This document shows positions 1-8,277 of a stretch of DNA of 8,277 nucleotides, one piece after another. The notes beneath the pieces were generated by a model. The model was not told where the DNA came from and did no database searches. It saw only the letters and a list, made by a program, of their open reading frames with translations. This stretch comes from a virus (lineage: Duplodnaviria > Heunggongvirae > Uroviricota > Caudoviricetes): IMG/VR virus record IMGVR_UViG_2534681993_000039, positions 1 through 8,277 of that record. One strand, 5' to 3'. The translations under genes were made by a program, and so were the position numbers. Within the stretch, counting starts at the first letter, position 1. The number at the start of each line of letters is the position of its first letter.

Positions 1-240
1 TCAAACTTTTTTTGAGCTGATTTGTGTCACAGGTAACATCTCATCATCAGCCCATGCGGCCAGTCGGTAAGCCTCTGCCGGATTCATTTTCAGAAGTGCC
101 AGCCCGGCCAGAAAAGCCACGCGTTGGCCGCTTTTGCGGGCTTCCGGTGTAAGGCTGTCCAGCCAGGCGCATGCTTCGCTTTCGTTCTTGACGGCCGCAG
201 GCTTCAGATAGAAACTTATCCGTCTGGTTGGAGTCGTCAT
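1..240 (-). CDS. ParR-like ribbon-helix-helix centromere-binding protein, short form (79 aa)
   Basis: ATG at 240..238 preceded by AAGGAG (rc of 248-253), 7 nt spacing; stop TGA is rc of 1-3. The N-terminal 55 aa (RRISFYLKP...LDSLTPEARKSGQRVAFLAGLALL) resemble my recollection of plasmid R1 ParR (RRTIAFKLNP...LDSIPQGERSRLNRAALTAGLALY). Sits 4 nt after the parM stop, the usual parM-parR arrangement. The 124-aa ORF-track version from 375 overlaps parM and has no homology in the extra part. Confidence 0.6.
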   Translation of the reverse strand: MTTPTRRISFYLKPAAVKNESEACAWLDSLTPEARKSGQRVAFLAGLALLKMNPAEAYRLAAWADDEMLPVTQISSKKV

Positions 241-244
241 TGGT

Positions 245-1204
245 TTACTCCTTGTCCATTGCGTACAGCCCATTAACCAGAGCAAACTGTGGCACCCCGT
301 CCGCGATGAAAGTCGCATTAACTCCGCAGGCTTCGCGGATAGCGGGTGCCACAATCTCCGCCCCTCCACCGACAACCATCACCCGCCCGTAACCCGAAAA
401 ACCCGCCAGCGCGCGGATCACGCGTTGTTTCAGTGTTTCTTCCTTTTCACGAATTACCGCCATCAGGCTGGCGTAATGCGCGTCATTGTGGATGTGCTGG
501 CGCAGCCAGGCTTCATCATGGCGATGTTCGATAATGGTATTGGCGATGTGGTGACTGGTGCGCATACCGTTAGTGGCCATCACCGACAGTACGGCATCGG
601 CCATCAGAGAAACGCCCACGTGTGGATCGCAAAACACCTGGCTGATACCTGCCAGTTGCCCCTGAACCTTTGCCACATCCAGCGTGGTTCCGCCCAAATC
701 CACAATCAGCAGGGATTCAAACGGACTCATGTCAGCCAGTGCCTTAAAGCCAGCCGGAATGGATTCAGGCATAACCCGTACGTTACGGATAGTGAATGCT
801 TCGCCGTTCTGGTACTCCACCGGGCGCATGACGTTCGCTTTTTTGCGGTTGATGTTGGCCATGTCCGGCTGTGCGTTTGTATCGAAATACTCGCTCAGTG
901 GCAGGGTGACAACCACATCCACTTCCTGTGGTGTGATGCCTGATTTGACCAGCGCGTGATGAATGGCAATTATATTCACATCGCTGTACTGGTATTGCGT
1001 GTCGGTCGTCTGGACAAAGCGATCGCTGACCGGATCAAAACCATAGCGCACGCCATCAAGCATGTAGTTCGCGGGCTGCGTGCCACCGAACGGCGCAGAC
1101 CATTCCGACTTGAAGCTGTTCGGGCTGATGGCGTTGCGGCGTTCGCCGTTCTCAGTCCATGCCAGCTTGATGTTGGTGGAGCCGTCGTCGATACAAATTT
1201 TCAT
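245..1204 (-). CDS. parM: ParM/StbA-family actin-like segregation ATPase (319 aa)
   Basis: Full-length ORF; ATG at 1204..1202 with AAGGA 8 nt upstream on the - strand. N-terminus MKICIDDGSTNIKLAW, internal VMPESIPAG and LLIVDLGGTTLDV, and C-terminal VMVVGGGAE match the actin-fold phosphate/adenosine motifs and align along the whole length with plasmid R1 ParM as I recall it. Confidence 0.85.
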   Translation of the reverse strand: MKICIDDGSTNIKLAWTENGERRNAISPNSFKSEWSAPFGGTQPANYMLDGVRYGFDPVSDRFVQTTDTQYQYSDVNIIAIHHALVKSGITPQEVDVVVTLPLSEYFDTNAQPDMANINRKKANVMRPVEYQNGEAFTIRNVRVMPESIPAGFKALADMSPFESLLIVDLGGTTLDVAKVQGQLAGISQVFCDPHVGVSLMADAVLSVMATNGMRTSHHIANTIIEHRHDEAWLRQHIHNDAHYASLMAVIREKEETLKQRVIRALAGFSGYGRVMVVGGGAEIVAPAIREACGVNATFIADGVPQFALVNGLYAMDKE

Positions 1205-1222
1205 GTCGCTTTTCCTTATGTT

Positions 1223-1256
1223 GATTAATTAATCGGTTACAGGATTTTTAAATCCC
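1223..1256. promoter_or_regulatory. palindromic elements in the 76-bp A-parM spacer
   Basis: Perfect 12-bp palindrome GATTAATTAATC at 1223-1234; inverted repeat GGATTT/AAATCC at 1242-1255. They lie 10-30 bp upstream of the parM ribosome-binding site. Confidence 0.3.
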
Positions 1257-1280
1257 GCTTTTGCCTGTTTTGTGCGCGCT

Positions 1281-4103
1281 TCATATATCGCGGCACGTTT
1301 TTTGCTCATTTACGGGATTTGTGAGTCCCGTTTCTGTCTGTTTTTTGTTTCCACTGGTCAGGCTACCCCGCAGCAGGTCTGCTTTGCGGTGGGCGCGTTC
1401 AGTGGTTTCACTGATTCTCTGTGCGTGCTCTGCGTCACGGATGGCGCGCAGCATGTCAGAAAGCACGGTAACGGGGGTTTTCATGGTGTTCTGGTCCTGC
1501 TGAAGTGTGGATGCCAGGTGTGCGGCGGCTTCGGGGTCTGATGCCCCCAGCTGTTCCAGATAGCTGGCGACCGGGTTATGGCGGATCTCCGTGCTGCTTA
1601 CGCCGTGATTACGGCTCAGGCGCTGCCAGAGTTGCGTGATTCGGCTGTCCGGGCGGGTATCTGGTTTGCGTACAATTTCAAATCCCTGCGGTGCAATGAT
1701 GCTGCCGTCAACGTACAGACTGCCGCCCCGTAACAGGTGCTGCATCTGCTGTTCACCGATATGCAGGCCGAGAGATTCAGCAGACTCCCGCCATTCTTTA
1801 GCGAGTAACTCGTGGTTATCAGGCAAAGGCCGTGGCTGTTTGCGGCTCTGTGTCCAGTTCTGCATTTCATCACTGCTGTTTTTTGCCTGTTTGTCACGCA
1901 GCGAACGCATCAGCGCCCGGCGTTCGTGCCGTTTCAGTGAGCGCATCCATTCGTTCACTTCAACGCCGTCAGGGAGTTGCGGCCACGGTGTTGTCCGTTC
2001 TTCCGGCTGTTCTGTCCCGTTGTTGTTCGTTTCCTGTACACGGGGACAGTTATTGCCACGAGTCCAAGGGGCGGCAGGGCCGCCCTGAAGGTCAAAACCA
2101 TTTTCGCGGGCGCTGTCTTCCGCTTCCGGTTTACGTCTTATCAGCTTCCAGTTATCCGGATGTGTGCACACACGGGAAGACTCCCCGATGAGTGGTGACC
2201 AGATCCCGTAAATCTGTACATTCTGTTCGCCGTAATCGTTCGGCTCATCTGCGAGGTCGTAGGCGGTGCGAATCAGGTAGTCTTTGCGTGGAACAAGTAC
2301 GCCGCCCTGTTTTTCAATGTAGGAGGCAAAACACCCGGCATCAGCGGCAGCGAGCACTGCATCCATTGCGTCATCCTTCAGCCGTTGCGGGCCTTCCTGG
2401 TTGCGTGCCATCTGGTTGGCAAGGCGGCGCAGTTCACGCCACACCTGACGGGAGGGGATGCCAAAGAACTGGAACTGGCGGACCCGGTGAAGGCGCGCCC
2501 AGCCGATGGCGCGCTCCACGCTCTCGGCCATTGATTTTCCGGTTTCGTGGTCAACGCGTGGCTTGCCCGTTTTCGGGTCGATACCATCCACGGCGCGGCT
2601 GTCCAGGTTCTTTCCGATGTAGGTGGCGATGTAGCTGGTTGGCGTGCCTTTTGAGCCGTCGACATACTCCACCTTAAAGCGCGGAGTAATATCATTGCCC
2701 AGCTCGTGGCGGTCTTCCTGAATGGCAATATCGCGGGTATGGGACACAATGGTGTCGATTTCTTCCGGATGTGCAAAGACCATCATATGCCAGTGCACGG
2801 TGCCGTCATGATGAGGCTCCACCGTGCGGATGCCATACCAGCGCAGGCCGTCGCGGTTCAGTTTTTTGCGGACCGCCGCAAAAAACGTGTTAACCAGGTA
2901 ATCGCTGGAGTCGCGCATTGTGGCCCCGTTCCATTTGGGATTTGGATGACCGTTCTCCGTTGTGGCGTGGTATTTTGACGGGCAGGTGACAGTCAGAAAC
3001 ACCGCTTTGTCGCCACGGGCTTCGGCCAGAAGTTCCAGCCCCTTCATGGTGGCCATCATTTCTGCCTTACGGTGAACCGGGTTACTTACTCCCGCGTAAT
3101 ACACCGTCTCGAGATCAATCGTGAACCCGTCTTCATTTTCCAGCATGAAACTTTTCAGGAAATCGCGTGTTTTCTCGCGCTGTGCGCGAAACTCGCTTAA
3201 CGCGTCCTGGCTCAGATAGGGTGATGTTTTTCTGGAAACCAGACAGGCGGCGCGGAGTTGTTCTTCCCGCCACTCGCAACGTAACAGCCATAGTTTGCGT
3301 TTCCACCATTCCGCACAGGTCAGGCGAAGGATTGCGCCCGGCAGCAGCTCCGTGTCCGGTTCGTTCCTCCGGTCTTTGTCTGTTGTCAGAGCGTCATAAT
3401 GTGGAGGCATGGCGTGCAGGTGTAACGCCATGCGGGCCAGCATCTGATACGCCTTCAGCGTTACATCCATGGTCAGCTCGCCATCGGTCGCGCCAAAGCC
3501 ATCGCAGAGTTTTTCAAAAGTGCCACTGAACATCGCCGCCGTCATGGTGGCCAGCGTCTGTATCTGGTGTTTGTTGAGCTGCGGCAGGTAAAGCAAATCG
3601 TCCAGGCGTTCGCGTCCGGCAAGGGAGCGATAACCCGGTGTCAGCCAGCGGTGATCGGTGCGCTCCAGACGTTCGAATATTTTGCGCAGGGTCCCACGCG
3701 CATAGCGTTCTGCCTGCCTGGCGTTTTTTCCTTTCTGACGATCGGCTTCCTGTTTTTTGCGCAGGAAGGAGAGGTGGCGAATAAGCGGATCGCGCAGATA
3801 GGACGGCAGCAGGCGCAGCGAGGCCATGGCTTCATCCACCGCGCAGCGTGCCTGTTTTCTGGCGTCTCCTGCCAGTGTGATGGTTTTGTCCTGTTTTTCC
3901 TGTGCGTCCAGGCTTTTATTAATCAGGTTGCCCAGCGGCGTGGCGGAGAACGCCGCATCAGCCATTTCCTGGCGGCGCTCGTTCTCTGCCCGGTAGGCAT
4001 CCAGCCAGGAGGAAAGCGCGGATTCAGGAGCGGGGATCCCCGTTCCTTCACGCCCCACTGCGTGGCGCGGTTGTTGCCAGTCCCTGATGTACTCTGCCGT
4101 CAT
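1281..4103 (-). CDS. GpA-family (P2 A / phiX174 A superfamily) rolling-circle replication initiator endonuclease, 940 aa
   Basis: Single 2.8-kb ORF. HUH motif VEPHHDGTVHWHMMVF (HWH codons at 2795..2787) and tyrosine pair YIATYIGKNLD (Y codons at 2633..2631 and 2621..2619) as in phiX174 A and P2 A; also FLTVTCPSKYH upstream. Start ATG 4103..4101 lies 6 nt after the stop of the upstream gene. Confidence 0.9.
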   Translation of the reverse strand: MTAEYIRDWQQPRHAVGREGTGIPAPESALSSWLDAYRAENERRQEMADAAFSATPLGNLINKSLDAQEKQDKTITLAGDARKQARCAVDEAMASLRLLPSYLRDPLIRHLSFLRKKQEADRQKGKNARQAERYARGTLRKIFERLERTDHRWLTPGYRSLAGRERLDDLLYLPQLNKHQIQTLATMTAAMFSGTFEKLCDGFGATDGELTMDVTLKAYQMLARMALHLHAMPPHYDALTTDKDRRNEPDTELLPGAILRLTCAEWWKRKLWLLRCEWREEQLRAACLVSRKTSPYLSQDALSEFRAQREKTRDFLKSFMLENEDGFTIDLETVYYAGVSNPVHRKAEMMATMKGLELLAEARGDKAVFLTVTCPSKYHATTENGHPNPKWNGATMRDSSDYLVNTFFAAVRKKLNRDGLRWYGIRTVEPHHDGTVHWHMMVFAHPEEIDTIVSHTRDIAIQEDRHELGNDITPRFKVEYVDGSKGTPTSYIATYIGKNLDSRAVDGIDPKTGKPRVDHETGKSMAESVERAIGWARLHRVRQFQFFGIPSRQVWRELRRLANQMARNQEGPQRLKDDAMDAVLAAADAGCFASYIEKQGGVLVPRKDYLIRTAYDLADEPNDYGEQNVQIYGIWSPLIGESSRVCTHPDNWKLIRRKPEAEDSARENGFDLQGGPAAPWTRGNNCPRVQETNNNGTEQPEERTTPWPQLPDGVEVNEWMRSLKRHERRALMRSLRDKQAKNSSDEMQNWTQSRKQPRPLPDNHELLAKEWRESAESLGLHIGEQQMQHLLRGGSLYVDGSIIAPQGFEIVRKPDTRPDSRITQLWQRLSRNHGVSSTEIRHNPVASYLEQLGASDPEAAAHLASTLQQDQNTMKTPVTVLSDMLRAIRDAEHAQRISETTERAHRKADLLRGSLTSGNKKQTETGLTNPVNEQKTCRDI

Positions 4104-4109
4104 AGTGAT

Positions 4110-4475
4110 TTACTTCGTCATGCCATTCAGGGTGTCGCGGCAGACTGTAGCCAGCCGCTGAATTTCCAGCACGGTGTCTTCTGTGTCGGCATGGCGATGT
4201 GTGATGCGGATGCTGTCGGCAATCACATCGACGATTGCAGAGGATGGGCGCTGGTAAATGCCAACAACGGACGGGGTGCCACCTTCAATGCGGTAAAGCC
4301 TGTAATTTCCCTCGTGGCTGTCAATCATGTAGCGACCATCAATAACAATCTTTCCGTCAGCGAGCTGCGGTACAGGCAGGGATTTCAGGTACATGTCATA
4401 ACGTTCCCGCACGCGAACGGCAAGATCACGCTCTGTGTTGAGCAGGTATTCAAGAAAGTCGTTGGCGAGAATCAT
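4110..4475 (-). CDS. hypothetical early protein (121 aa), translationally coupled to the replication gene
   Basis: ATG 4475..4473 with AAGAGGA 8 nt upstream (rc of 4476-4492); stop TAA 6 nt before the A start. No family recognised. Confidence 0.6.
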   Translation of the reverse strand: MILANDFLEYLLNTERDLAVRVRERYDMYLKSLPVPQLADGKIVIDGRYMIDSHEGNYRLYRIEGGTPSVVGIYQRPSSAIVDVIADSIRITHRHADTEDTVLEIQRLATVCRDTLNGMTK

Positions 4476-4616
4476 TGCGGCAATCCTCTTGTTACAGATG
4501 TGCGAAGGCCTCCCGCCACAAGGTGCAGGAAAGGCCCGGAACAGGAATTAATGGAGTTTGTTTTGCTGCCGGATGAGCTGCTGAAGCCCGACGTGGTTTC
4601 CGGCAGTTGGAGGTGC

Positions 4617-4862
4617 TCATGCTCTGATTTCCCTCAGTAGCTGGTTGAACATCTGGGTTAGTGGGTTGCTACACCCAAACGGCATCGGGTTTACCTGATA
4701 AGAAAAGCGACCGCCTGTTTTGCGCTCTTTTCTTATGACTGAACCGCTGCGCCAGAGACGGCGTAGCTCCACATTAATGGTTGTGGTTGGTGTATTCAGT
4801 GCTGCGGCGATTTCTCCACCGCTACAACCCGGATTGGCAGCGATGTAGTCCAGAATGGTCAT
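4617..4862 (-). CDS. small putative winged-helix DNA-binding protein (81 aa)
   Basis: ATG 4862..4860 overlaps the upstream stop (ATGA). ILDYIAANPGCSGGEIAAALN...INVELRRLWRSGSVIRKERKTGGRFSYQ looks like a helix-turn-helix followed by a beta-hairpin wing; fold-level inference only. Confidence 0.5.
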   Translation of the reverse strand: MTILDYIAANPGCSGGEIAAALNTPTTTINVELRRLWRSGSVIRKERKTGGRFSYQVNPMPFGCSNPLTQMFNQLLREIRA

Positions 4863-5062
4863 CTGCGTGATTCCTGTACCTGTCTGATAAGATTCACCTG
4901 CACCACGTTGGTGGCGCAGAAGTAAGTGCCGTCAGTGAGATAGATGTGATGTGCATCCTTTTCTGAACTGTGTTTGTCGATTGTGGTAATCAGGCGTTCG
5001 TCAACTTCGTATTCACGTCCTCTGGAGGTGAAACGAACGACAGGAAAATGCTTAATTGCCAT
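4859..5062 (-). CDS. hypothetical protein (67 aa)
   Basis: ATG 5062..5060 preceded by a strong AAGGAGG (rc of 5063-5078); the ORF-track 84-aa form starts further upstream without a ribosome-binding site. Overlaps the downstream gene start by 4 nt. Confidence 0.5.
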   Translation of the reverse strand: MAIKHFPVVRFTSRGREYEVDERLITTIDKHSSEKDAHHIYLTDGTYFCATNVVQVNLIRQVQESRR

Positions 5063-5156
5063 TACGCCTCCTTGGCGTGTGCGAATACCTCCGCGAATGC
5101 GGATTGTTTTCACATTTTCTTATTTAACCTGGGGGCTTATTTGCGCGGTTATTCTT

Positions 5157-5186
5157 CAGTGAAAAAGCGTTCAATCTTTTTTACTG
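5157..5186. repeat. A/T-rich inverted repeat in the 195-bp intergenic gap
   Basis: CAGTGAAAAAG (5157-5167), 8-nt spacer, CTTTTTTACTG (5176-5186); arms match 10 of 11. Confidence 0.35.
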
Positions 5187-5258
5187 AATTAATAATTCGC
5201 ATAATCCCAATGGCGCAGACCACCGAAATAATCAGAACAAGCCATGAGATAAATATAC

Positions 5259-5501
5259 TCATGCGATATTTCCCAGCTTATACGGTTCAATATGTTCCCC
5301 GCATTCTGCGGCACAGATCAGCTCGGAAAGTTCGTTAAGTGCATCCAGGTCATCAGCGTAAAAAGCCACGTCATACAGACTTCGGATTGCTCTGGTCAAT
5401 GAGTCACGGGCCGCACGTTCAGCATGAGCGCCTGATGCACTTAAGCGAAAATAAAAACGCTCAAGTGCTTTGTTAATGAGAGTTTTATATTCTTTGCCCA
5501 T
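5259..5501 (-). CDS. hypothetical protein (80 aa)
   Basis: ATG 5501..5499 (the ORF-track first codon is GTG one codon upstream); AGGG 8 nt upstream; begins 11 nt after the stop of the preceding gene. No family recognised. Confidence 0.45.
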   Translation of the reverse strand: MGKEYKTLINKALERFYFRLSASGAHAERAARDSLTRAIRSLYDVAFYADDLDALNELSELICAAECGEHIEPYKLGNIA

Positions 5502-5512
5502 CACAACGCCCT

Positions 5513-5800
5513 TTAATCTGCTTTCTGTATTTCAGCTTCTGAATCCATACAAATAATTTCGATATAGGGTTCATCGCCATTAACCTGGCGTGCCTTTTCA
5601 GCTTCGCTAATGATTTCTCGTACGGTCTGGTACGGAAGTTCCACAAGCAGTCGCGTGCCGTTCAGATAAACGTAAGTGGCTTCGTCGGCTCCGTTTTTAC
5701 CCGCCGGAGTCACTCCGTCAATAGCGGATGCACGTAATAACAGTTCACCGCGACAATCAATAAAACGGATAAATACACCTTGTGCATGGTCTTTGGTCAT
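5513..5800 (-). CDS. hypothetical protein (95 aa)
   Basis: Internal ATG 5800..5798 with AGGTG ribosome-binding site (rc of 5801-5815) chosen over the ORF-track start at 5914, which would overlap the upstream gene by about 100 nt. No family recognised. Confidence 0.5.
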   Translation of the reverse strand: MTKDHAQGVFIRFIDCRGELLLRASAIDGVTPAGKNGADEATYVYLNGTRLLVELPYQTVREIISEAEKARQVNGDEPYIEIICMDSEAEIQKAD

Positions 5801-5810
5801 AAAGCACCTG

Positions 5811-6149
5811 TTATAAATCAGCCTGTTTAATAAAACTTTGCCCGCGAAGCAGACGATCAACCGTGCGAAGTGCTTCGTATAATGTGAAATCCTGCCCGAA
5901 CTGATTGTCACCACAGCTCAATGCAAAAATGCGGTTTCCGGTAAACGGATTGCGTGGGCATTTGTGGATCACGATTCCAGCTTTCTCAATCAGCCAGGCG
6001 TGCTCGCCGATTTGTTTTACTGGGTAGCCATCCGGCGTTGCGTGTGTATCACTCAGGCTGTAGCGGATGTTGCTGCGTGATGCACTGGTAGTGAAACGGT
6101 TAGCGTGGCGTTCTGTTCCGGTACGAAAATTACGGCGTTGCTTCAGCAT
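5811..6149 (-). CDS. hypothetical early protein (112 aa)
   Basis: ATG 6149..6147 with GAGGTG 7 nt upstream; lies immediately downstream of the cox-like gene. No family recognised. Confidence 0.55.
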   Translation of the reverse strand: MLKQRRNFRTGTERHANRFTTSASRSNIRYSLSDTHATPDGYPVKQIGEHAWLIEKAGIVIHKCPRNPFTGNRIFALSCGDNQFGQDFTLYEALRTVDRLLRGQSFIKQADL

Positions 6150-6163
6150 AAAATGACACCTCG

Positions 6164-6442
6164 TTATTTTGTCATCTGCACGTATTTTTCTGCGCTCCTG
6201 ATTGTTTTCAGGAAAAGAGCGAAGAGATTTACTGTGCGTCTTGAGTTCTTTTCATCCTGGTTGATGGGAATTGAACCTCTGTCAGCCTGTCTTTTCACTG
6301 TGTTAACAGCTTGGTTGGTACGCTTTGCGTAATCTTTCAGGCTTTCTTCAAGTACTGGTAACCCATGCTCATCGCGGTAGGGATAGAACGCTGCTAAACG
6401 CTCAAAGTCTGCCTGTTCGTGTGTGTTCAGGACTTTTGCCAT
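6164..6442 (-). CDS. small DNA-binding protein in the Cox/Apl position (putative lytic-switch regulator or excisionase), 92 aa
   Basis: First gene of the - strand operon, divergent from the repressor gene. DYAKRTNQAVNTVKRQADRGSIP resembles a helix-turn-helix. No clear similarity to P2 Cox as I recall it, so the call rests on position and size. Confidence 0.5.
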   Translation of the reverse strand: MAKVLNTHEQADFERLAAFYPYRDEHGLPVLEESLKDYAKRTNQAVNTVKRQADRGSIPINQDEKNSRRTVNLFALFLKTIRSAEKYVQMTK

Positions 6443-6538
6443 GTGTGATAACCTGCGCTATCTGTGGTTGTTTGTGACTCGGTGTACTTATAAGTACACC
6501 TTGTGCGCAAGCTTAGTGTACTTATAGGAACACTGTCA
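6443..6538. promoter_or_regulatory. divergent switch/operator region between the cox-like and C-like genes
   Basis: 96-bp intergenic region. Perfect 20-bp palindrome GGTGTACTTATAAGTACACC at 6481-6500; related imperfect palindrome AGTGTACTTATAGGAACACT at 6515-6534; both share the direct repeat GTGTACTTATA, centres about 34 bp apart. Candidate - strand promoter: -35 TTGACA (rc of 6534-6539), -10 TAAGCT (rc of 6510-6515). Candidate + strand promoter: -35 TTGTGC 6501-6506, -10 TATAGG 6523-6528. Confidence 0.5.
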
Positions 6539-6847
6539 ATGCTTATCGGTGAAAAAATTAGAGTGATTCGTGAATCAGAGGATTTAACGCGCGAAGAATT
6601 TTGCGGCCTGATTGATGTGCCTATCGGCACTTTGCGTCGTTATGAAACGGGGCGGATTGAAAACATAGGGGGCGAAGTGCTTATCAAGATTGTTAATCAC
6701 CCTCGCTTTTTTAAGTACATGAATTGGCTTATGACGGGAAAAACAAATGAGGCTGCTGGGCAGATCAGTCCGTCTCTCTCCCCTGATGGGCCAAAAAGCA
6801 CATCGCCTTCTCAAAAATCCCGCAAGACTGGTACACAGCCCGGCTAA
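6539..6847 (+). CDS. P2 C-like immunity repressor (102 aa)
   Basis: GEKIRVIRESEDLTREEFCGLIDVPIGTLRRYETGR...PRFFKYMNWLMTGKT...GQISPSL parallels P2 C as I recall it (GEKI, VP.GTL..YE.GR, KY..W.MT, GQI.P.L). ATG 6539 chosen; the in-frame GTG at 6503 is an alternative. Followed by int on the same strand, as in P2. Confidence 0.7.
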   Translation: MLIGEKIRVIRESEDLTREEFCGLIDVPIGTLRRYETGRIENIGGEVLIKIVNHPRFFKYMNWLMTGKTNEAAGQISPSLSPDGPKSTSPSQKSRKTGTQPG

Positions 6848-6853
6848 TCATGG

Positions 6854-6888
6854 AACGCTGGGGGCATGGTGGTCTTGTAACGCTGGGG
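6854..6888 (+). repeat. 10-bp direct repeat AACGCTGGGG x2 in the C-int spacer
   Basis: Exact copies at 6854-6863 and 6879-6888; the second ends 8 nt before the int ATG and may supply its ribosome-binding site. Confidence 0.4.
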
Positions 6889-6896
6889 TTTCACGA

Positions 6897-7871
6897 ATGA
6901 GCATAAAATCAATTCCGGGAGGGTATCTTCTTGACATGCGCCCTGAGGGGCGTAAAGGCAAACGCATTCGCAAAAAATTTAAAACGAAATCGGATGCAGT
7001 TTTATATGAGCGGTGGGTGCTGGCGCAACAGCATAACAATGAGTGGAAAGGAAACTCCATTGATCGCCGTCCGCTGTCAGTGCTTATTGACTTGTGGTGG
7101 AAATACCACGGCCAGCTAATGAAGTCAGGGCATAACATGCGCCTTAAATTGCTGCGCTTGAGTGAGGCAATGGATGACCCGTGCGTGCATAAACTTAATA
7201 CAACGATGCTCACCGAGCTACGTGTGTCCAGGATAGAGCAGGGGATACAGCCCAGCACCATAAATCGAGAGATTGGGGCGTTAAGCGCGATGTTTACCGC
7301 ACTCATCTCATCCGGCCATTTTCTTAACGATAACCCCGTTCAAGGCCTTAAAGGAATGAAGGTTAACGAGCGCGAAATGGGATATCTGAGTAAGTCTGAA
7401 TGTGTTCAGTTGCTGGATGCACTGGCTGAAAATCCCGATGAACGGCTGGCTGTCGAAATCCTTCTGTCGACCGGGGCGCGATGGGGCGAGGTAGCGGCAC
7501 TGGAGCAGCGCCGTGTTCTTCATTGTCGAATCACTTTTTCAAAAACGAAGAACAGCAAAAACCGTACCGTTCCTATTTCTGAAAGCCTGTTTGAAAAGAT
7601 CAAAAAACGGGGCGGGAAACTGGTGTTTCCGACGCTGGATTATCCATTGGTTCGCGATGTCATCAAAACGGTCGCACCAGATGTTCCTGACGGCCAGGCT
7701 GTTCATGCGCTGCGCCACACCTTCGCCAGTCATTTCATGATGAACGGCGGCAATATTCTGACGCTCCAGAAAATTCTGGGGCACGCAAAGATTCAGACAA
7801 CGATGATTTATGCCCATCTTGCGCCGGATTACTTGCAGGATGCGGTGAGATTTAATCCTATTGCTGGGTAA
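6897..7871 (+). CDS. int: P2-like tyrosine integrase (325 aa)
   Basis: N-terminus MSIKSIPGGYLLDMRPEGRKGKRIRKKF and C-terminal catalytic region HALRHTFASHFMMNGGNILTLQKILGHAKIQTTMIYAHL (R, H-x-x-R, H, Y) follow P2 Int closely as I recall it. Start set at ATG 6897; the ORF-track start at 6747 overlaps the C gene and precedes the region of homology. Confidence 0.9.
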   Translation: MSIKSIPGGYLLDMRPEGRKGKRIRKKFKTKSDAVLYERWVLAQQHNNEWKGNSIDRRPLSVLIDLWWKYHGQLMKSGHNMRLKLLRLSEAMDDPCVHKLNTTMLTELRVSRIEQGIQPSTINREIGALSAMFTALISSGHFLNDNPVQGLKGMKVNEREMGYLSKSECVQLLDALAENPDERLAVEILLSTGARWGEVAALEQRRVLHCRITFSKTKNSKNRTVPISESLFEKIKKRGGKLVFPTLDYPLVRDVIKTVAPDVPDGQAVHALRHTFASHFMMNGGNILTLQKILGHAKIQTTMIYAHLAPDYLQDAVRFNPIAG

Positions 7872-7881
7872 GGAGGATGTT

Positions 7882-8277
7882 GTGGAAAAAACAGTTAATA
7901 GCGATTTGCATTTAGGTCAGTACTGGAGAATAGACATTGTATGCGATCCAGAACTTCGAGATGAGGTTGAGCAATATTTTTCTCTACACGATGTTGGTTT
8001 TAGCAAAATTGAAGTTTTTTCCGTCGAAAATCCATATAAACTTGCTCTGTTCTTTGATTTCGCGAAGAAGGGTGTGGAGGTTGCAAAAGCCATTATGGGA
8101 CTCTTAGACCGAAATGATATTGAAATAACGATGTATCGTGCTACGGACAGTAGCCCGCAGTCTGTAAAAAGCATCAAATTGCGTAAGTCTGAAGACGTAG
8201 AGAAATGTAAAGATTTGCTTAGTACGTGTGTCGCAATTGGCGTTCAACGAAATAAGGAAAAAGAGGGGAGCGAATGA
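7882..8277 (+). CDS. hypothetical AT-rich protein (131 aa) translationally coupled to int
   Basis: AGGAGG at 7871-7876 overlaps the int stop codon (TAA 7869-7871); GTG start at 7882, 5 nt downstream, in frame with the ORF-track reading. GC about 40% by hand count against 55-65% in int and A. No family recognised. Confidence 0.55.
   Translation: MEKTVNSDLHLGQYWRIDIVCDPELRDEVEQYFSLHDVGFSKIEVFSVENPYKLALFFDFAKKGVEVAKAIMGLLDRNDIEITMYRATDSSPQSVKSIKLRKSEDVEKCKDLLSTCVAIGVQRNKEKEGSE

Follow-up and report, generated by a model that had tools for sequence, protein, structure and literature searches.

The window analyzed here is an 8,277-nt stretch of phage DNA (positions 1 to 8,277 of the Caudoviricetes record IMGVR_UViG_2534681993_000039), and its last gene is a 131-codon open reading frame, ORF131 (7882..8277, + strand; phrog_14142, WP_000416304.1), that directly follows the tyrosine integrase gene int. 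ORF131 is a complete orphan cargo gene, situated inside a P2-like prophage between int and the attachment site attP. More specifically, it is an accessory ('moron') gene in a fixed slot that extends from the int stop codon to the first integrase (Int) arm-binding repeat of attP. In the loci examined this slot is always filled and its content is effectively binary, being either ORF131 or a two-gene module for a zinc-ribbon and a coiled-coil protein.

Genomic location and attachment site

The window aligns with a P2-like prophage of Escherichia coli DEC9B at 99.95% identity over all 8277 bases. Of the 5426 complete genomes of E. coli searched, 299 contain the int–ORF region, in the chromosome every time, and ORF131 is carried by 158 of the 5426 (~3%), including major pathogenic lineages (O26:H11, O111, O104:H4, O55:H7 and O127:H6), while K-12 and the other ~97% are without it. 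The element has a P2-like gene set (replication endonuclease, Cox-like protein, C, portal, terminase, P2-family capsid, sheath, tube, gpD and ogr) and is inserted between ihfA and btuC. Its 25-bp attachment (att) core, GGCCGCTCTGCGGCCTTTTTTCTTT, is the rho-independent terminator of ihfA, and is present at both prophage ends and as a single copy in K-12. One copy occupies positions 10585-10609 of locus L001, 107 nt beyond the ORF131 stop codon and the end of the window, and the other lies at about 2000-2025 of locus L003. The downstream order is ORF131, attP and btuC. The btuC side was matched in 5426 of 5426 genomes, and those free of the prophage, K-12 included, match only from the core onward. 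Since the core and the start of host homology come only 107 nt past ORF131, the gene is phage cargo and not host DNA.

This location settles several proposals of a first-pass annotation, which had been made from the letters of the window alone. Its suggestion of phage-borne cargo holds, the core being found at both prophage ends and K-12 homology starting past the gene. The alternative that it had named, a core at 7872-7882 or inside an ORF matching a host gene, was not what we observed, and genomes without the prophage have no ORF131 at this locus. Its further idea that ORF131 opens a larger system continuing past 8277 is ruled out by attP and btuC, which stand directly 3' of the gene.

The arm repeats TCCACAAAGTGACCACA (reverse complement TGTGGTCACTTTGTGGA) begin 1 nt past the ORF131 stop codon and form a TGTGG pair at 11-bp spacing, the same as in the annotated Int arm sites of P2; a second, similar pair is found beyond the core, toward ogr. 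As in P2 (AF063097), the gene order is C, int, attP, the repeats are spaced by 11 bp, about 88 bp separate the arm from the core, and the Cox-like gene diverges from C. An attachment site had been expected immediately beyond int, and in P2 the int-proximal P' arm site indeed overlaps the int 3' end with no gene between them, the core being about 80 bp away, whereas in the ORF131 prophage a 406-bp insert, made up of the Shine-Dalgarno (SD) sequence and ORF131, fills precisely the interval from the int stop codon to attP, whose outer edge follows the gene. The ORF131 prophage also differs from P2 in its core and its integration site, the ihfA terminator. Rfam gave only sub-threshold matches on the ORF–attP region, among them one to the enterobacterial small RNA STnc540 (L001 10544-10667; 22.5 bits, gathering score 38) that covers both the att core and the leader of btuC.

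The int–ORF131 junction

The integrase gene (6897..7871, + strand; 324 amino acids; ATG at 6897; Pfam Int_N 2.6e-28 and Phage_integrase 3.1e-20) has its TAA stop codon at 7869-7871, the last base of which is shared with a perfect SD sequence, AGGAGG (7871..7876, + strand). A 5-nt spacer, ATGTT, leads to the GTG start codon at 7882, 10 nt 3' of the int stop. These signals were read in the same way by the first-pass annotation, and translation from the GTG gives the 131 amino acids that it reported. However, it took the frame to run unfinished to the window edge, while a TGA occupies the final three bases (8275-8277), so that ORF131 is complete and is not cut off there.

No recognizable SD sequence was seen 5' of the int ATG. 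The RNA fold of the junction, compared with shuffled sequence, is unstructured (z = +0.6), and the ORF131 SD is unpaired in the minimum-free-energy fold. Because this SD is both perfect and unpaired, an independent translation start of ORF131 is to be expected. As to the idea of translational coupling to int, the overlap of the SD with the int stop codon is real, but the unstructured junction and the free SD speak against an obligatory dependence through a masking hairpin.

Alternative occupants of the slot

Prophages with near-identical int and attP (F344, SE11, O157:H7 and others) differ in what the slot contains. For instance, in the F344 prophage the int DNA is 98.9% identical to a point 6 nt short of the stop codon, and identity returns where ORF131 would end; ORF131 itself is replaced by two unrelated genes, which encode 127 and 99 amino acids. 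Other E. coli prophages have gene pairs of 120 and 145 or of 166 and 145 amino acids, or an unannotated stretch followed by a 145-amino-acid gene. The alternative genes all have the orientation of int, and the annotated ones begin 2-11 nt past its stop codon, with the SD of the SE11 and O157 types located within the last, divergent int codons. All of them are versions of one module that consists of a zinc-ribbon protein (phrog_4293) followed by a coiled-coil protein (phrog_9415/3556), present in E. coli, O157:H7 included, and Klebsiella (L004 5325-6000; L006 1404-2203; L008 6804-7842; L052 3190-4005). The coiled-coil protein has a CCDC90-like match below the Pfam threshold and is annotated as DUF1640 in O157:H7. 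In a circular P2-like genome from Klebsiella, int is followed by a 25%-identical version of the two-gene module. Among known defense families neither protein of the module found a match, the PADLOC matches being weak and of the coiled-coil type only.

The slot was occupied in each of the 49 IMG/VR loci that have both an arm site and int, by ORF131 in 18 and by the zinc-ribbon/coiled-coil pair in 31, and no empty slot was encountered in 60 genomes sampled from 306 of E. coli. The two kinds of cargo are mutually exclusive, and the type of cargo tracks the int allele. The clean edges of the cassette, at the last int codons on one side and the first Int arm site on the other, show that cargo can be exchanged with the geometry of attP left undisturbed.

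Variable genes next to the attachment site have been described in P2-like phages, where the int–att interval of P2 is a minor defense hotspot holding 3% of P2 systems (PMC13586616, NAR 2026) and a third P2 hotspot lies between a tail gene and cI (bioRxiv 10.1101/2024.10.15.618418). The ORF131 slot resembles the accessory region of these reports in that the genes lie inside the element between int and att, and that their content varies among near-identical prophages. However, both papers (PMC13586616; bioRxiv 10.1101/2024.10.15.618418) counted recognized defense systems, whereas ORF131 and its alternatives match no defense model, and the slot in the ORF131 lineage is binary and always filled and not broadly promiscuous. 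The kind of locus has thus been reported already; ORF131 is a new, uncharacterized occupant of it, which is unlikely to surprise a specialist.

Selection, age and base composition

Salmonella prophages at the ihfA/btuC site have the same order of C, int and ORF and the same 10-nt gap, with an ORF131 that is 60-63% identical, and an E. coli variant at 77% identity has an identical context. Between E. coli and Salmonella, the ratio of non-synonymous to synonymous substitution rates (dN/dS) is 0.24 for ORF131 (dS 1.23) and 0.08 for int (dS 1.26). The former value indicates purifying selection on ORF131, although non-synonymous change has been about three times faster than in int. As the dS of the two genes is equal, they have diverged in step, which implies an old association and not a recent arrival. 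Judged by these rates, ORF131 is a real, selected gene that has been inherited together with int.

The same data bear on the simplest alternative, namely that ORF131 is host DNA at the prophage flank, or an ORF arisen by chance. Apart from the position at the edge of the prophage nothing speaks for this, and we regard it as scarcely credible and reject it: genome matches start at the core, the core itself is 107 nt past the gene, ORF131 is missing from K-12 and most complete E. coli genomes whereas btuC is universal, its dN/dS is 0.24, and the probability of 131 stop-free codons at the base composition of ORF131 itself is ~4e-5.

The G+C content (GC) is 0.396 in ORF131, 0.493 in int and 0.519 in the whole window, and at third codon positions (GC3) it is 0.356 in ORF131 versus 0.538 in int. 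In all lineages examined, the GC of ORF131 is 8-11 points under that of its surroundings. The first-pass values of about 40% and about 60% were accordingly right for the AT-rich ORF (39.6%) but too high for int (49.3%), and the gap amounts to 10 points instead of 20. The AT-richness and the swapping of cassettes fit the proposed horizontal acquisition, but the matching dS values do not fit a recent one.

Distant homologues on the other side of the attachment site

Other P2/HP1-like prophages have homologues with 30-39% identity to ORF131 at their ogr end (L049 1405-1806; L034 1-384; L041 5001-5387; L038 117-515). There a host gene (a fabB/fabF-type ketoacyl synthase gene, or raiA) comes first, followed by the homologue and, on the other strand, by ogr and gpD. 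Between its host terminator and its homologue, L049 has two TCCAC repeats spaced by 11 bp, which places this homologue inside the element. The L038 homologue adjoins an AAA_15/AAA_21 ATPase gene. On a circular map such a homologue would still be downstream of int and co-oriented with it, the crossover presumably falling before it and not after it. Going by gene order, the ORF131 family is att-proximal cargo that is independent of int.

Protein family and predicted structure

Of 5.8 billion protein clusters searched by word index, 11 matched ORF131. An exhaustive hidden Markov model search of 1.84 billion representative proteins gave 16 matches, 11 of which are credible, the weakest being low-complexity noise in long proteins. 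The only family matched is phrog_14142, to which ORF131 (E = 4e-70) and the 34%-identical homologue P0013 (E = 1e-41) both align over their full length; the family is annotated as of unknown function, and membership gives no functional information. There was no match to ORF131 in Pfam or NCBIfam, no family in PADLOC-DB 2.0 at E <= 10, and no tblastn match to either ORF131 or the distant P0013 in 50,697 phage records and 72,556 plasmids. A scan of species-representative genomes uncovered only one copy, which is degraded, in Symbiopectobacterium. Across these sequence searches the family is tiny and confined to P2-like prophages of enteric bacteria. No papers on WP_000416304 or phrog_14142 were found in the literature.

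The AlphaFold2 model of ORF131 is a beta-alpha-beta-alpha-beta-beta-alpha-beta sandwich (predicted local distance difference test score 75, predicted template modeling score 0.70). Foldseek found nothing at E <= 0.001 in PDB and BFVD, and a sequence-profile search of PDB gave nothing. A weak ferredoxin-like resemblance was noted to ACT, PII and CutA domains and to the N-terminal domain of V-ATPase subunit I (identity 3-17%), with which ORF131 has no ligand-binding motif in common. The Lys-rich C-terminus described in the first-pass annotation is a mixed-charge one, with 6 K/R and 7 D/E among the last 30 residues. The most conserved block is A-x-x-IMGLL-x-R-x-DIEIE, and no transmembrane segment or catalytic motif was seen in the protein. 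Most likely, ORF131 is a 15-kDa soluble alpha/beta protein devoid of catalytic motifs that would act by binding a target. Its isoelectric point (pI) is 5.15, but among the homologues the pI varies from 5.2 to 7.6, and we rejected an acidic DNA mimic because this property is not conserved.

Relation to integration and excision

Recombination directionality factor (RDF) was another role offered for ORF131 in the first-pass annotation. We rejected an RDF of the Cox/Apl/Xis type on the basis of the ferredoxin-like prediction, which is not helix-turn-helix or winged-helix, the acidic pI, and the lack of any Pfam or PHROG excisionase match. Moreover, a candidate for this role is encoded at the canonical position, 6164..6442 on the - strand, a putative Cox-like excisionase/repressor (phrog_575, 'Cox-like excisionase and repressor', E = 1.1e-7) that is divergent from C, as in P2. 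Also at variance with the RDF proposal, near-identical int genes are accompanied by other slot genes, and the distant homologues are not beside int.

A broader form of this idea is that ORF131 serves as an accessory of integration or lysogeny, modulating the activity or stability of Int, the architecture of attP or the repressor, for example by shielding C from a satellite antirepressor. The main argument for such a dedicated function is that the slot is never empty and holds two module families across E. coli and Klebsiella. The gene also comes directly after int in both the E. coli and the Salmonella lineages, with equal dS, and the cargo type follows the int allele. Nevertheless, we consider an integration or lysogeny accessory decidedly improbable. 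An int that is 98.9% identical at the DNA level functions with a wholly different module, the att core separates the distant homologues from int in the prophage, the RDF candidate is located elsewhere, the predicted fold is neither helix-turn-helix nor winged-helix, and P2 itself has no such gene.

Expression and possible function

The C-type immunity repressor gene (6539..6847, + strand; 102 amino acids; ATG at 6539) matches Pfam HTH_3 and HTH_31, is annotated as helix-turn-helix in DEC9B, and would open the lysogenic operon. Just 5' of its start, at 6480-6535 of the window, are GTGTACTTATAAGTACAC and GTGTACTTATAGGAACAC, which are probably repressor operators. Crude consensus scans, which also missed the promoter Pc, detected no + strand promoter or terminator from C to the end of ORF131, and the only + strand terminator that they placed downstream of the operon start is the att core hairpin. 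This absence fits the co-expression with int that had been proposed, and the layout is most simply read as a single C–int–ORF131 operon in which ORF131 would be the last gene.

With this layout, ORF131 would be transcribed in lysogens from Pc, as the final gene of the repressor–int operon, and transcription would stop at the hairpin of the att core, which is the ihfA terminator. After integration, one copy of the core still terminates ihfA, and the other should terminate the C–int–ORF131 operon just before the btuC promoter. The perfect and unstructured SD would provide for much more ORF131 protein than integrase, whose gene has no SD. The small soluble product might then bind a target, without catalysis, and the lysogen would gain from interference with competing phages or satellites, through exclusion or defense.

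The first-pass annotation had named exclusion, abortive infection or anti-defense as candidate functions. Lambda rexAB and P2 old, tin and fun(Z) are AT-rich, non-essential and lysogen-expressed genes that exclude other phages, and rexAB is co-transcribed with the immunity repressor. By analogy with rexAB, which is transcribed with cI, and with the AT-rich old, tin and fun, we propose that ORF131 may be a lysogen-expressed factor of competition with phages or satellites, a role to which we assign slightly less than an even chance. It is favored because the int–att interval has been reported among the minor defense hotspots of P2 (PMC13586616; bioRxiv 10.1101/2024.10.15.618418). ORF131 has no sequence or fold similarity to any of these exclusion genes, and old, tin and fun are in other P2 slots.

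A more far-reaching version of this proposal, which we put forward as speculative and on the whole unlikely, is that ORF131 founds a new class of single-protein prophage exclusion or anti-satellite factors that are expressed from the immunity operon and are interchangeable with the zinc-ribbon/coiled-coil pair. On this view, the place between int and attP would be an always-filled slot dedicated to 'lysogen protection'. The family straddles attP, on the int side here and on the ogr side elsewhere, so that integration could rewire its expression. If either ORF131 or its two-gene alternative does block phages or satellites, it would represent a compact new protein family in prophage-encoded immunity, and the little-studied int–attP slot of P2-like phages would be a productive place to search.

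A rival reading is counter-defense, in which ORF131, made early in infection while Pc is active as well as in lysogens, would neutralize an immunity protein of the host or of a resident prophage and thereby aid in establishing or maintaining lysogeny. A small, soluble protein that has no enzymatic motif, evolves faster than int (dN/dS 0.24 vs 0.08) and belongs to a narrow, phage-confined family would suit such a role, and the hotspot cargo of P2-like phages does include some anti-defense genes (PMC13586616). However, only 28 P2 elements with such genes were counted in that study, anti-defense genes usually reside in early lytic operons and not in a repressor–int operon, and ORF131 is not a conserved acidic DNA mimic. 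Counter-defense appears improbable to us, and interference with competitors is still the preferred reading.

Expression in lysogens would likewise be expected of a lysogenic-conversion factor, one that acts on host physiology (metabolism, stress or virulence) and not on other phages. The presence of ORF131 in pathogenic lineages (O26:H11, O111, O104:H4, O55:H7 and O127:H6) is in line with conversion, as is the weak fold resemblance to ACT/PII/CutA-type domains, which bind small ligands. We nonetheless view this possibility as an outside one.

Other cargo and features of these prophages

Additional cargo was noted in ORF131-related prophages. In the related prophage of O26:H11 (L002), a complete HxsABCD cluster of the His-Xaa-Ser radical S-adenosylmethionine type is located between gpD and ogr (21125-24522), and a Hok/Gef-family toxin gene between ogr and the att core (25226-25366). 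With the latter gene beside att, both att-flanking slots of this prophage hold cargo. A serine acetyltransferase gene (13385-13957) follows the tail-fiber assembly gene of L002, at the Z/fun position, and is likely an O-antigen-modifying conversion gene. Compared with the O26 11368 relative, the window has a different immunity region, with about 90% or no identity.

At the opposite end of the window, genes for a ParM-type segregation ATPase (245-1204) and a partition/stability protein (1-240), both on the - strand, are situated between the replication and portal genes, which is unusual for an integrating phage. The replication–portal interval that holds the ParM-type gene is the position of old and tin in P2. 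In O111 strains, the match begins at base 8 of int, with a DUF4761 gene annotated beneath it, which suggests that a deletion took the repressor region and left a degraded prophage that keeps ORF131.
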